Below, one piece after another: positions 13,552 through 53,703 of a stretch of 64,000 bases of DNA. The position numbers were made by a program, and so were the translations under genes. Numbering within the stretch: the first letter of the stretch is position 1; every line of letters starts with the position of its first letter. Under the pieces are notes generated by a model. That model had not been told where the DNA came from. It searched no databases and saw nothing but the letters and a program-made list of their open reading frames with translations. Source of the stretch: Escherichia coli (GTDB taxonomy: Bacteria; Pseudomonadota; Gammaproteobacteria; Enterobacterales; Enterobacteriaceae); the NCBI RefSeq assembly GCF_036507355.1, contig NZ_AP027877.1. One strand, given 5' to 3'.

Positions 13552-13569
13552 GCACTAGTTCTCTAGTAC
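13552..13569 (-). promoter_or_regulatory. TrpR operator of the aroH promoter
   Basis: Minus strand GTACTAGAGAACTAGTGC matches the trp-repressor palindrome; overlaps the ppsR stop codon. Confidence 0.8.
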
Positions 13570-14396
13570 ATTCGGCGACTAAGGCCCATGATATCGAGGA
13601 TCTTGGTGGCAATCTCTTCTACCGAATAATTGGTACTGTTAATCCACGGGATCTGATTTTTACGGTACAAGGCTTCCACTTCCGCGACTTCCATCCTGCA
13701 CTGACGAAGCGAGGCATAGCGACTGTTCTCCCGACGTTCCTCGCGAATCGCCGCCAGACGTTCCGGGTCGATAGTCAGGCCGAACAATTTATGCTGAAGC
13801 GGTTTGAGCGACGCGGGTAGCACCAGATTATCCATATCGTCGGCAATAAAGGGGTAGTTTGCCGCGCGGATACCAAATTGCATTGCCAGATACAGACTGG
13901 TGGGGGTTTTACCACAGCGAGAAACACCGAGCAGGATCACCTGAGCCTGATCCAGATTGCGCAACGAAATGCCGTCATCGTGGGCGAGGGTGTAATCAAT
14001 CGCCGCAATGCGCGCATCATATTTATTGAGATTATTAGGGTTAAGGCCATGGGTACGATGAGCAATCGGCGTTGGATCCAGTTTCATCTCTTGTTGTAGC
14101 GGGGCAACCAGCGCCTGAACGATATCCTGGCAAAAGCCTTCACTTTGCAAGATGATGGCGCGAATCTCCGGCAACACGATGGAGTAGAAGACCAGCGGGC
14201 GCACGCCTGTCTGGTGATAAATTGCGTCAATCTGATCCTTCACTGCCCGTGCTCGGCTCTCATTTTCGACAAACGGCAGCGTGATGCTGCTGATAGTGAC
14301 GGGAAATTGTGACATTACTGCGTGTCCTAATACCTCCGCAGTTATTGCCGTACCATCAGAAATATAAAAAACGTGGCGATCAACAGCATTATCCAT
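13563..14396 (-). CDS. ppsR: PEP synthetase regulatory protein (bifunctional kinase/pyrophosphorylase)
   Basis: 277-aa [32 protein letters not shown]... Confidence 0.92.
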
Positions 14397-14627
14397 TTTG
14401 TTCTTCCCGTGATGCAGACATAATTCTATGAAAGCATAAATTAAAAACGCACAGAAGCGTAGAACGTTATGTCTGGTTTATAAAATGAACCTTCAATTTT
14501 ATTTTTTATGAAAACAGTATTTCATTTTTATGGTTTCGTTTATACCGATGGTTTATGTGGAAATTGTCGAAGAGAGCAGATTTGCGCAACGCTGGGATCA
14601 GTCTTAAAAAGTAAAAAAATATATTTG

Positions 14628-14642
14628 CTTGAACGATTCACC
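14628..14642. promoter_or_regulatory. Cra (FruR)-like site in the ppsR/ppsA divergent region
   Basis: cTTGAACGATTCAcc resembles the TGAAWCGWTTCA Cra half-palindrome. Confidence 0.45.
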
Positions 14643-14728
14643 GTTTTTTTCATCCGGTTAAATATGCAAAGATAAATGCGCAGAAATGTGTTTCTCAAAC
14701 CGTTCATTTATCACAAAAGGATTGTTCG

Positions 14729-17107
14729 ATGTCCAACAATGGCTCGTCACCGCTGGTGCTTTGGTATAACCAACTCGGCATGAATGATGTAGACAGGGTT
14801 GGGGGCAAAAATGCCTCCCTGGGTGAAATGATTACTAACCTTTCCGGAATGGGTGTTTCCGTTCCGAATGGTTTCGCCACAACCGCCGACGCGTTTAACC
14901 AGTTTCTGGACCAAAGCGGCGTAAACCAGCGCATTTATGAACTGCTGGATAAAACGGATATTGACGATGTTACTCAGCTTGCGAAAGCGGGCGCGCAAAT
15001 CCGCCAGTGGATTATCGACACTCCCTTCCAGCCTGAGCTGGAAAACGCCATCCGCGAAGCCTATGCACAGCTTTCCGCCGATGACGAAAATGCCTCTTTT
15101 GCGGTGCGCTCCTCCGCCACCGCAGAAGATATGCCGGACGCTTCTTTTGCCGGTCAGCAGGAAACCTTCCTCAACGTTCAGGGTTTTGACGCCGTTCTCG
15201 TGGCAGTGAAACATGTATTTGCTTCTCTGTTTAACGATCGCGCCATCTCTTATCGTGTGCACCAGGGTTACGATCACCGTGGTGTGGCGCTCTCCGCCGG
15301 TGTTCAACGGATGGTGCGCTCTGACCTCGCATCATCTGGCGTGATGTTCTCCATTGATACCGAATCCGGCTTTGACCAGGTGGTGTTTATCACATCCGCA
15401 TGGGGCCTTGGTGAGATGGTCGTGCAGGGTGCGGTTAACCCGGATGAGTTTTACGTGCATAAACCGACACTGGCGGCGAATCGCCCGGCTATCGTGCGCC
15501 GTACCATGGGGTCGAAAAAAATCCGCATGGTTTACGCGCCGACCCAGGAGCACGGCAAGCAGGTTAAAATCGAAGACGTACCGCAGGAACAGCGTGACAT
15601 CTTCTCGCTGACCAACGAAGAAGTGCAGGAACTGGCAAAACAGGCCGTACAAATTGAGAAACACTACGGTCGCCCGATGGATATTGAGTGGGCGAAAGAT
15701 GGCCACACCGGTAAACTGTTCATTGTGCAGGCGCGTCCGGAAACCGTGCGCTCACGCGGTCAGGTCATGGAGCGTTATACGCTGCATTCACAGGGTAAGA
15801 TTATCGCCGAAGGCCGTGCTATCGGTCATCGCATCGGTGCGGGTCCGGTGAAAGTCATCCATGATATCAGCGAAATGAACCGCATCGAACCTGGTGACGT
15901 GCTGGTCACTGACATGACCGACCCGGACTGGGAACCGATCATGAAGAAAGCATCTGCCATCGTCACCAACCGTGGCGGTCGTACCTGTCACGCGGCGATC
16001 ATCGCTCGTGAACTGGGCATTCCGGCGGTAGTGGGCTGTGGTGATGCAACAGAACGGATGAAAGACGGTGAGAACGTCACTGTTTCTTGTGCCGAAGGTG
16101 ATACCGGTTACGTCTATGCGGAGTTGCTGGAATTTAGCGTGAAAAGCTCCAGTGTAGAAACGATGCCGGATCTGCCGTTGAAAGTGATGATGAACGTCGG
16201 TAACCCGGACCGAGCTTTCGACTTCGCCTGTCTGCCGAACGAAGGTGTGGGACTTGCGCGTCTGGAATTTATCATCAACCGTATGATTGGCGTCCACCCA
16301 CGCGCACTGCTTGAGTTTGACGATCAGGAACCGCAGTTGCAAAACGAAATCCGCGAGATGATGAAAGGTTTTGATTTTCCGCGTGAATTTTACGTTGGTC
16401 GTCTGACTGAAGGGATCGCGACGCTGGGTGCCGCGTTTTATCCGAAGCGCGTCATTGTCCGTCTCTCTGATTTTAAATCGAACGAATATGCCAATCTGGT
16501 CGGTGGTGAGCGTTACGAGCCAGATGAAGAGAACCCGATGCTCGGCTTCCGTGGCGCGGGACGCTATGTTTCCGACAGCTTCCGCGACTGTTTCGCGCTG
16601 GAGTGTGAAGCAGTGAAACGTGTGCGCAACGACATGGGGCTGACCAACGTTGAGATCATGATCCCGTTCGTGCGTACCGTAGATCAGGCGAAAGCGGTGG
16701 TTGAAGAACTGGCGCGTCAGGGGCTGAAACGTGGTGAGAACGGGCTGAAAATCATCATGATGTGTGAAATCCCGTCCAACGCCTTGCTGGCCGAGCAGTT
16801 CCTCGAATATTTCGACGGCTTCTCAATTGGCTCAAACGACATGACGCAGCTGGCGCTCGGTCTGGATCGTGACTCCGGCGTGGTGTCTGAACTGTTCGAT
16901 GAGCGCAACGATGCGGTGAAAGCACTGCTGTCGATGGCGATTCGTGCCGCGAAGAAACAGGGCAAATATGTCGGGATTTGCGGTCAGGGTCCGTCCGACC
17001 ACGAAGACTTTGCCGCATGGTTGATGGAAGAGGGGATCGATAGCCTGTCTCTGAATCCGGACACCGTGGTGCAAACCTGGTTAAGCCTGGCTGAACTGAA
17101 GAAATAA
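14729..17107 (+). CDS. ppsA: Phosphoenolpyruvate synthase
   Basis: 792-aa [34 protein letters not shown]... Confidence 0.95.
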
Positions 17108-43291: not shown

Positions 43292-44704
43292 TTACAGGAC
43301 GTGAACAGATGCGGTGTTAGTAGTGCCGCTCGGTACCAGTGCACCAGAAACCATAACTACAACGTCACCTTTGTGTGCCAGACCGCTCTGCAGAGCCAGT
43401 TCTTTACCCAGACGGTAGAAATCATCAGTAGAAGTGATCTCTTTAACCAGCTGCGGCACAACGCCTTTGCTCAGTACCAACTGATGAGCCGTTTTTTCGT
43501 TGGTGGTCAGTGCCAGGATGGTGGCATCCGGGAAGTATTTACGTACTGCGCGAGCAGATTTACCGCCCTGGGTAGCAACCACGATCAGCGGAGCATCCAG
43601 TTTTTCAGCAGTTTCAACGGCACCACGGCATACCGCTTCGGTAATGCGCAGTTTACGGTTGTCATTGTTGAACTCGAGACGGCTGTTCATCACGCGGTCG
43701 GTACGTTCGCAGATGGTCGCCATGATAGAAACCGCTTCCAGCGGGTATTTACCTTTTGCGGATTCACCAGACAGCATCACTGCGTCAGTACCGTCGAGGA
43801 TGGCGTTTGCAACGTCACCGGCTTCTGCGCGAGTCGGGCGTGGGTTTTTGATCATGGAATCCAGCATCTGGGTCGCAGTGATAACGACTTTACGTGCACG
43901 GATACATTTTTCGATCATCATCTTCTGGGCGAAGATAACTTCTTCTACCGGGATTTCTACACCCAGGTCGCCACGCGCAACCATGATGCCGTCAGAGGCT
44001 TCGAGGATTTCGTCGAAGTTGTTGAGGCCTTCCTGGTTTTCGATTTTGGAGATGATGTGGATGTTTTCGCCGCCGTGCGCTTTCAGGTGCTCACGGATTT
44101 CGATAACGTCAGAACGCTTACGAATAAAGGAAGCAGCAACAAAGTCTACGCCTTGTTCGCAACCAAAGATCAGGTCCTGTTTGTCTTTTTCAGCCAGTGC
44201 TGGCAGAGCAATGGAAACGCCAGGCAGGTTCACACCTTTGTTTTCGCCCAGGTCGCCGTTGTTCAGTACTTTACAGATAACTTTGTTACCTTCAATGGCG
44301 GTAACTTCCATACCGATCAGACCATCGTCAACCAGTACGGTGTTGCCAACAGACAGGTCAGTAGTGAAACCTTCATACGTTACCGCAACCATTTCGCTGT
44401 TGCCGATAACAGATTTATCAGTGGTGAAAGTAAAGGTCTGACCAGCTTTCAGAGAAACGTCGTTACCGCCTTCCAGTTTCATGGTGCGGATTTCCGGACC
44501 TTTGGTATCAAGCAGGATAGCGGCGGTTTTACCAGTTTTGCTCATCACGTTGCGCAGATTCTGAATGCGCTGACCGTGTTCTGCATAGTCACCATGAGAG
44601 AAGTTCAGACGCATAACGTTCATGCCAGCGTCCAGCATTTTAGCTAACATCTCTTCAGATTCGGTTTTCGGTCCGATGGTGCAAACAATTTTGGTCTTTT
44701 TCAT
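43292..44704 (-). CDS. pykF: Pyruvate kinase I
   Basis: 470 aa from [38 protein letters not shown]...; track ORF extends 72 codons upstream. Confidence 0.95.
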
Positions 44705-44909
44705 GACAGTCTTAGTCTTTAAGTTGAGAAGGATGGGAGAAACTTGCTTTCTGGGCGCACTGCCGGAAAGCGAATCCGGTATTACGAAAGTGGTGGTGCC
44801 TCGCTCTAAGGATAGGTGACATCGAAAAAGCGTGCAGAGGAATGTGTGCTTGTGTCTCAGCCCAACGTGAGTGCCTGTTTTTGAGTCGTTGAGTTCTACA
44901 GTCCAAAGT

Positions 44910-44923
44910 GCTGAAACCATTCA
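44910..44923. promoter_or_regulatory. Cra (FruR)-like box upstream of pykF
   Basis: GCTGAAACCATTCA against consensus GCTGAAACGTTTCA. Confidence 0.4.
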
Positions 44924-45260
44924 AGAGTCAATTGGCGCGTATTATACGCTGAAATTAATCCAAAAGGAAAACAAAAACAGCGTTTCAAAAAATATACAAC
45001 TTGTTAGACAATAAATTGTTATCAAAGATTTAACGTTCCAGGAAAAAGGTTACGCAAAAACTTCGCTGTTTGCGCAACGTCTGGTGCCGAAGTTGTCAGT
45101 GTGAGGATAAGTGAAAGTTCATCCGGTGTATAAATATATCATCGCTCAATTGCTACAGTTAAAATAATTTATCGCGTTATTTGTCTGATTTTGTTTGATT
45201 TTTGTTTAATTGGTTAGATTGATATATGCTGATAGTTGGCATGATAAATAGGTATAAAGA

Positions 45261-50058: not shown

Positions 50059-50840
50059 ACCCGTCGCAACATGCTGAACAGTTTCAGAGCCAGTTAGCGA
50101 ACTATGTGCCACAGTTCACTCCCGAATTTTGGCCGGTGTGGTTGATCATTGCCGGAGTATTGCTGGTTGGGATGTGGTTGGTGCTGGGGCTGCACGCCTT
50201 GCTTCGTGCTCGTGGCGTGAAGAAATCAGCCACCGATCATGGTGAGAAGATTTATCTTTACAGCAAAGCGGTCAGATTATGGCACTGGTCGAATGCGTTA
50301 CTCTTTGTATTGTTGCTGGCAAGTGGGCTGATAAATCACTTTGCGATGGTGGGCGCAACTGCGGTTAAAAGTCTGGTTGCGGTGCATGAAGTTTGCGGAT
50401 TTTTGTTACTGGCATGCTGGCTCGGCTTTGTGCTGATCAATGCCGTTGGGGATAATGGTCACCACTATCGCATTCGTCGTCAGGGGTGGCTGGAACGAGC
50501 GGCAAAACAAACGCGATTTTATTTGTTTGGCATTATGCAGGGGGAAGAACATCCTTTCCCGGCAACAACCCAGTCTAAATTTAATCCCTTACAGCAGGTC
50601 GCCTATGTTGGTGTCATGTATGGATTGCTGCCGTTGTTACTATTGACGGGGCTGCTGTGTCTCTATCCGCAAGCCGTGGGAGATGTGTTTCCTGGCGTTA
50701 GATACTGGTTATTGCAGGCGCATTTTGCTCTGGCATTTATAAGCCTCTTTTTTATCTTCGGTCATCTTTATCTTTGCACCACGGGGCGTACGCCACACGA
50801 AACCTTTAAAAGCATGGTCGATGGCTATCACCGGCACTAA
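50055..50840 (+). CDS. ydhU: Membrane cytochrome b-like subunit (PhsC-like)
   Basis: 261-aa polytopic membrane protein; 4-bp overlap with ydhX. Confidence 0.85.
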   Translation: MNPSQHAEQFQSQLANYVPQFTPEFWPVWLIIAGVLLVGMWLVLGLHALLRARGVKKSATDHGEKIYLYSKAVRLWHWSNALLFVLLLASGLINHFAMVGATAVKSLVAVHEVCGFLLLACWLGFVLINAVGDNGHHYRIRRQGWLERAAKQTRFYLFGIMQGEEHPFPATTQSKFNPLQQVAYVGVMYGLLPLLLLTGLLCLYPQAVGDVFPGVRYWLLQAHFALAFISLFFIFGHLYLCTTGRTPHETFKSMVDGYHRH

Positions 50841-53397: not shown

Positions 53398-53703
53398 TCA
53401 GGCGAGTTTTGCCTGATTGATTTGACTCAGTGGCTCATTGACATCGAAAACTTTGGCGACAACTTCCTCAACGCCGAGATTTTTCAGTCGGGCAGTGTGT
53501 TTTTCCAGATAGGCAAGGGCGCTTTTTTCATCAGTGAAAAGGTAGATCCCACCGGCTTCGTGGTTCTTTTCACTTTCGGTCCATACCTTCCACAGAAAAC
53601 CAGGTTCCTGATTAATCGACTCAGCAAGCGGTTTAAGCTGCTCAGCCATTGCGTCGCCAAATGGGCCATTGAAAGAAAAATGAAGTTGTAACAAAGTTGC
53701 CAT
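53398..53703 (-). CDS. ydhR: Small dimeric alpha+beta barrel protein (putative monooxygenase)
   Basis: 101-aa [41 protein letters not shown]... Confidence 0.85.

Follow-up and report, generated by a model that had tools for sequence, protein, structure and literature searches.

Cra (FruR)-type operators upstream of ppsA and pykF in an Escherichia coli chromosomal window, and the leader of pykF

Described Cra operators of ppsA and pykF

Reciprocal control of ppsA and pykF by Cra is a classic flux-sensing switch against futile cycling between PEP and pyruvate, and the ppsA promoter is already in use as a biosensor of glycolytic flux. Cra is an activator of ppsA and a repressor of pykF (PMC2759082; reviews), and the sign of its effect follows from where it binds: overlapping or following a promoter it represses, and from upstream it activates, as at aceBA (PMC5888115). 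In the formulation of Kim et al. (2018), repression results when Cra covers the -35 element, the -10 element or the start site, or sits downstream (PMC5888115). Operators identified by ChIP-exo on or after the promoters of pfkA, tpiA, epd, pdhR-aceEF, gapA and mtlA obey the same positional rule as the pykF site described below; these examples are, however, other genes, and the main text of the study does not mention pykF (PMC5888115).

The closest described systems are the operators of the same two genes in E. coli. For ppsA (Negre 1998; Ramseier 1993), the passage of PMC7897506 that cites Negre 1998 describes E. coli FruR as a class I activator at -45.5 that strengthens alpha-CTD binding, and controls with a scrambled-site ppsA promoter and with delta-cra have been reported (PMC5555440). 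For pykF (Bledig, Ramseier and Saier 1996; RegulonDB), the part of PMC2759082 that cites Bledig 1996 and RegulonDB reports a Cra site upstream of the gene together with a predicted TATAAT promoter, and Table 1 of that paper (Olvera 2009) lists, again citing Bledig 1996, a promoter at -231 from the pykF ATG. Olvera 2009 did not detect a transcript from this distal promoter but mapped 5' ends at -34, -80 and -97, assigned Cra a minor role in pykF expression under their conditions, and considered that the proximal 5' ends might be processing products of a longer mRNA (PMC2759082).

The DNA analysed here (the window, 64,000 nucleotides) is a segment of E. coli chromosome running from thrS to purR, as judged from the annotation of near-identical strains, with the gene order thrS, ppsR-ppsA, ydi genes, suf operon, lpp, pykF, fumD, purR. 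Its ppsA and pykF regulatory regions are 95-100% identical to those of ~5420 complete E. coli genomes. At ppsA the gene, the organism and the sequence block are those of the known operator, the layout fits, and nothing material differs; the ppsA regulatory region is 100% identical to that of many sequenced E. coli. At pykF the site again belongs to the same gene and the same upstream region, and the promoter that Olvera 2009 places at -231 from the ATG, ending in ..TTTCAGCGTATAATGCGCGC, directly precedes the box in the window. Just after the -10 hexamer this strain reads TATAATACGCGCC, whereas K-12 reads TATAATGCGCGC. Olvera 2009 gives the Cra site as 197 nt upstream of the pykF ATG, as against 206-221 nt here, apparently a difference of numbering.

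Table 1. Coordinates of the genes and regulatory features considered, in window numbering
Feature	Position	Strand	Basis
ppsA, PEP synthase, 792 aa, activated target	14729..17107	+	ORF list; RefSeq annotation of identical strain; homologues named phosphoenolpyruvate synthase
ppsR, divergent from ppsA	13563-14396		
pykF, pyruvate kinase I, 470 aa, repressed target	43292..44704	-	Sequence read; annotation; 80 orthologous loci
Cra (FruR) operator of ppsA promoter, GCTTGAACGATTCACC	14627..14642	.	Consensus match; 7-genus invariance; literature centre -45.5
Cra (FruR) operator of pykF, GCTGAAACCATTCAAG, both half-sites	44910..44925	.	Matches to RSTGAAWCSNTHHW and TGAAWCSNTTCA; 73/80 species
Distal pykF promoter, -10 hexamer TATAAT (predicted)	44941..44946	-	Spacing kept in 72/73 species; same hexamer as Olvera 2009 Table 1 promoter, -231 from ATG
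ynhH, 64-codon small ORF, TTG start	44712..44906	-	RefSeq annotation 'protein YnhH'; translation and tblastn

Consensus matches and conservation of the two boxes

A first-pass annotation of the window had proposed Cra-like boxes upstream of ppsA, at 14628-14642, and of pykF, at 44910-44923, the latter about 200 bp from its ATG. The gene assignments on which this rested are correct (Table 1), and both boxes are borne out by comparison with RSTGAAWCSNTHHW, which we take to be the asymmetric 14-nt Cra consensus of Ramseier 1995: the window contains three perfect matches against 0.53 expected, a number reached in 2 of 100 shuffles, and two of the three are the proposed boxes, each with 0 mismatches to the 14-mer. 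Upstream of pykF, GCTGAAACCATTCA lies exactly at the proposed position and extends to the 16-nt GCTGAAACCATTCAAG, 206-221 nt upstream of the ATG, close to the ~200 that had been estimated; upstream of ppsA, TTGAACGATTCA occupies 14629-14640 within the full 16-nt box GCTTGAACGATTCACC, which lies 87-102 nt from the ATG and whose match, GGTGAATCGTTCAA, is on the minus strand. Within the 888 nt of ppsR-ppsA and pykF-fumD intergenic DNA these 2 matches compare with ~0.007 expected, a value obtained by arithmetic from the window-wide RSTGAAWCSNTHHW rate.

The published Cra motif is given as ctgaAtCGaTtcag / gcTGAAtCGaTTCAgc (PMC5888115), and the 16-mer palindrome that we searched, GCTGAAWCGWTTCAGC, is close to the second of these. 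With up to 3 mismatches allowed it has 6 matches in the window against 1.17 expected, and no shuffle gives 6; the ppsA and pykF boxes carry 3 mismatches each, and other near-matches fall at 821 (in the thrS CDS) and 11946 (in the selO CDS). The pykF box is the only one of the two to match TGAAWCSNTTCA with 0 mismatches (half-sites TGAAACCATTCA), whereas in the ppsA box one half-site is strong (GGTGAATCG, minus strand) and the other degenerate.

Two candidates were rejected. The third perfect match to the 14-mer, AGTGAAACCTTCAT at 44363-44376 (+), lies inside the pykF CDS and is attributed to chance, being kept in 10 of 80 species with variation at silent codon positions. A weak Cra-like sequence near the ppsA ATG, TCAAACCGTTCA at 14695-14706, is absent from Salmonella, Enterobacter and Erwinia. 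Two more 3-mismatch matches to the 16-nt palindrome, GCTGAACAGTTTCAGA and GATTAATCGACTCAGC, were observed at 50073-50088 and 53610-53625.

Conservation of the pykF box was followed in the gene start plus 1200 nt upstream, taken from species-representative genomes of 80 Enterobacterales species and an Aeromonas. Between -211 and -261 from the pykF ATG, 73 of the 80 Enterobacterales species have the sequence TGAAWGGWTTCAGC, in genera that include Escherichia, Citrobacter, Enterobacter, Kluyvera, Pantoea, Erwinia and Serratia as well as Yersinia, Photorhabdus, Proteus, Dickeya, Pectobacterium, Edwardsiella and Budvicia; two further species have one-mismatch versions, and the same scan found no box in Rosenbergiella, Zophobihabitans or Aeromonas. 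When the sequences are aligned on the box, its 14 columns are essentially invariant and the flanks carry little information, and no other island upstream of pykF is as well conserved. Among 5426 E. coli records, 5408 have the same 30-nt segment centred on the box, which is a weak test given its short length.

For ppsA, PpsA homologues were traced to contigs of Salmonella, Enterobacter, Cronobacter, Tenebrionibacter, Erwinia and Pantoea, all of which have a box ~100 nt ahead of the ppsA start codon. Salmonella, Cronobacter and Tenebrionibacter have a perfect box, and in the others the weak half-site varies. In the alignment of 7 genera no invariant run upstream of ppsA is longer than TGCTT..ACGATTCA.C, whose core ACGATTCA occurs in 7/7 genera; of 5420 E. 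coli genomes, 5365 share the same 30 nt centred on the box, again a weak test for a short segment. For one PpsA (P0088), recorded as Serratia fonticola, the 140 nt of upstream DNA compared do not differ from those of Pantoea rwandensis, and to judge from this identity its source record is probably mislabelled or contaminated.

Both boxes combine a motif match, a position in a regulatory region and a phylogenetic footprint, and the match, its excess over chance, the conservation and the positions together support reading both as Cra sites. We put the probability that they are Cra (FruR) operators, through which ppsA is activated and pykF repressed in a flux-dependent manner, at roughly 94%; the binding itself, its release by effectors and the direction of regulation are taken from the literature, binding and release through citations of Bledig 1996, Negre 1998 and Ramseier 1993/1995 (PMC2759082, PMC5555440, PMC7897506). 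The pykF box had been rated the weaker call of the two, and this ranking is reversed: it has both half-sites, 0 mismatches to TGAAWCSNTTCA and the same sequence in 73/80 species, as against one degenerate half at ppsA. Its distance of ~200 nt from the ATG reflects a long leader and not a misplaced site.

Promoters, the pykF leader and neighbouring sites

An operator centred at -45.5 would place the ppsA transcript start near 14680, ~49 nt before the ATG. A consensus sigma-70 scan found no promoter on the ppsA strand, which lends no positive support to one but is expected given the poor -35 region and fits an activator-dependent promoter. With the start located from the literature, the box lies upstream of the core promoter, and its location fits that of an activator.

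At pykF, 72 of the 73 box-bearing species have TATAAT or TATACT at a distance of 15-18 nt on the upstream side of the box. In the window the corresponding start would fall at ~44934-44935. Counted from there, the operator would span ~+11 to +26 of a conserved distal promoter, a location that fits a repressor. A simple consensus promoter scan did not find this distal promoter, and the promoter positions used here rest on the literature together with conservation; the fixed spacing between hexamer and operator across Enterobacterales argues that the distal promoter is real. A second conserved island of the leader, CTCTGCACGCTTTTTCGATGTCACCTATCCTTA at 44807-44839 (-), with the form CTCTGCACGC..GTCACCTATCCTTA, has its core GTCAYCTATCC 113-134 nt before the ATG in 40 of 80 species (41 of 81 sequences including the window), and it overlaps the proximal promoter P4/P5 of Olvera 2009 (-10 TATCCT, start at -97; PMC2759082).

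RefSeq now annotates a small ORF, ynhH, in the leader of E. coli pykF. It fills the leader from 3 nt past the Cra box to 7 nt short of the pykF ATG. Translation and tblastn found the frame open at 50-97% identity in Escherichia, Citrobacter, Kluyvera, Enterobacter and others, and not open in Pantoea, Serratia and Yersinia. The ORF may be co-regulated by Cra, and the end of its translation, so close to the pykF start codon, could couple to or tune pykF translation. The pykF frame itself (43292-44920, -) continues without a stop for 72 codons ahead of the true start, beginning at an ATG inside the Cra box; we reject this as a longer PykF and regard it as an accident of sequence, the extension being open in E. 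coli and E. albertii and interrupted by stops in other genera.

Sites resembling those of two other regulators lie nearby. The palindrome AATRAAAYRNYRTTTYATT is the type that we take to represent KdgR operators, and the KdgR-type form TRAAAYRNYRTTTYA, searched with at most 1 mismatch, has only 2 matches in the window, at 14510-14524 and 44973-44987, against 1.11 expected; both fall in regulatory regions, those of ppsR-ppsA and upstream of pykF. In ~36 of the 80 species searched (Enterobacteriaceae-type genera) the pykF copy, GAAAC-N3-GTTTY, recurs 60-64 nt upstream of the Cra box; Dickeya, Pectobacterium, Brenneria, some Erwinia and Yersinia aldovae have a similar palindrome in a different place, between the Cra box and the -10 hexamer. 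The portion of PMC6127512 that follows Rodionov 2004 lists ppsA, pykF and ydiA as KdgR targets. For PdhR, boxes have been reported by genomic SELEX for ppsA/ppsR and fumD/pykF (PMC7660256). These occur exactly at 14759-14775 and 44431-44447, both inside coding sequence (ppsA codons 11-16 and ~260 nt into pykF, respectively), where their conservation is inseparable from protein constraint.

Competing explanations and the regulatory model

That both boxes are functionless chance matches to a short consensus we regard as practically negligible. The consensus is indeed degenerate, and the perfect match within the pykF CDS is clearly chance, but the excess over expectation in the two regulatory regions, the deep conservation of both boxes while their flanks diverge, and the published binding and regulation at both genes all speak against it. 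Another LacI/GalR-family repressor with a similar palindrome might conceivably use both boxes in place of Cra, a central CG and general symmetry being common to LacI-family operators; this is extremely improbable given the exact fit of both boxes to the Cra-specific half-site TGAAWC and a literature that assigns regulation of both genes to Cra, backed for ppsA by controls with a scrambled site and with delta-cra (PMC5555440, PMC7897506). A role confined to pykF would be that the box is kept for the RNA leader, as a hairpin or as the ynhH translation start region, and not as a DNA operator. The box would be transcribed if the distal promoter is used, it adjoins the ynhH TTG start, and its only variable positions, TGAA[T/A]GG[T/A]TTCA, would form the loop of a small hairpin. 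However, the leader folds at -4.3 kcal/mol (z = +1.23), no better than shuffled sequence; the box is kept equally well in Pantoea, Serratia, Yersinia and Pectobacterium, whose leaders have stops in all frames; and the conserved GC beside one half-site (TTTCAGC) suits the asymmetric Cra consensus and not a hairpin, such that this reading, too, is very improbable.

A further explanation accepts Cra binding at pykF without a block of the distal promoter: the proximal promoters at -34, -80 and -97 would dominate, and Cra, bound 110-190 nt upstream, would act weakly or indirectly. Olvera 2009 found only proximal 5' ends, no distal product and slight changes attributable to Cra (PMC2759082), and the conserved island at 44807-44839 coincides with the P4/P5 -10 region. 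Nevertheless, the same authors allow that the proximal ends originate by processing (PMC2759082), the annotated ynhH requires transcription to start upstream of 44906, and a TATAAT/TATACT hexamer at a fixed 15-18 nt in 72/73 species is hard to explain unless promoter and operator form a unit. Accordingly, we consider this explanation unlikely.

The preferred reading thus remains that of two Cra operators of opposite effect, and activation of ppsA and repression of pykF, as the first-pass annotation had suggested, agree with the box positions, the cross-genus conservation and the published regulation. In the corresponding model Cra (FruR), a LacI/GalR-family regulator, reports glycolytic flux, and at low flux (acetate, pyruvate) free Cra would occupy both boxes. 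At ppsA, Cra just upstream of a weak -35 element, centred at ~-45.5, would aid RNA polymerase, so that PEP synthase is made. At pykF, Cra on +11 to +26, 15-18 nt after the -10 hexamer, would block polymerase and lower pyruvate kinase I, a steric block at the distal promoter that we infer from this geometry; the leader ORF ynhH would probably drop together with pykF. At high flux, fructose-1-phosphate or fructose-1,6-bisphosphate would release Cra and reverse both effects, and reciprocal control of this kind would avoid a futile PEP/pyruvate cycle. What the present analysis contributes to the model is the sequence match, its excess over chance, the positions and the conservation.

Both sites are the textbook Cra operators of ppsA and pykF; as such they are already known and represent no new biology. 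The comparative addition lies in the fixed spacing between operator and -10 hexamer across Enterobacterales, which supports a promoter that went undetected in one mapping study, and in the annotated small ORF ynhH, which is now placed between the operator and pykF. We suggest, tentatively and as a possibility somewhat against the odds, that the Cra-controlled distal promoter makes a ynhH-pykF transcript and that YnhH is an unrecognised member of the Cra regulon, coupling to or tuning pykF translation. If this is true, the PEP/pyruvate switch would gain a post-transcriptional layer, and the discordant 5' ends reported for the pykF leader could be accounted for.
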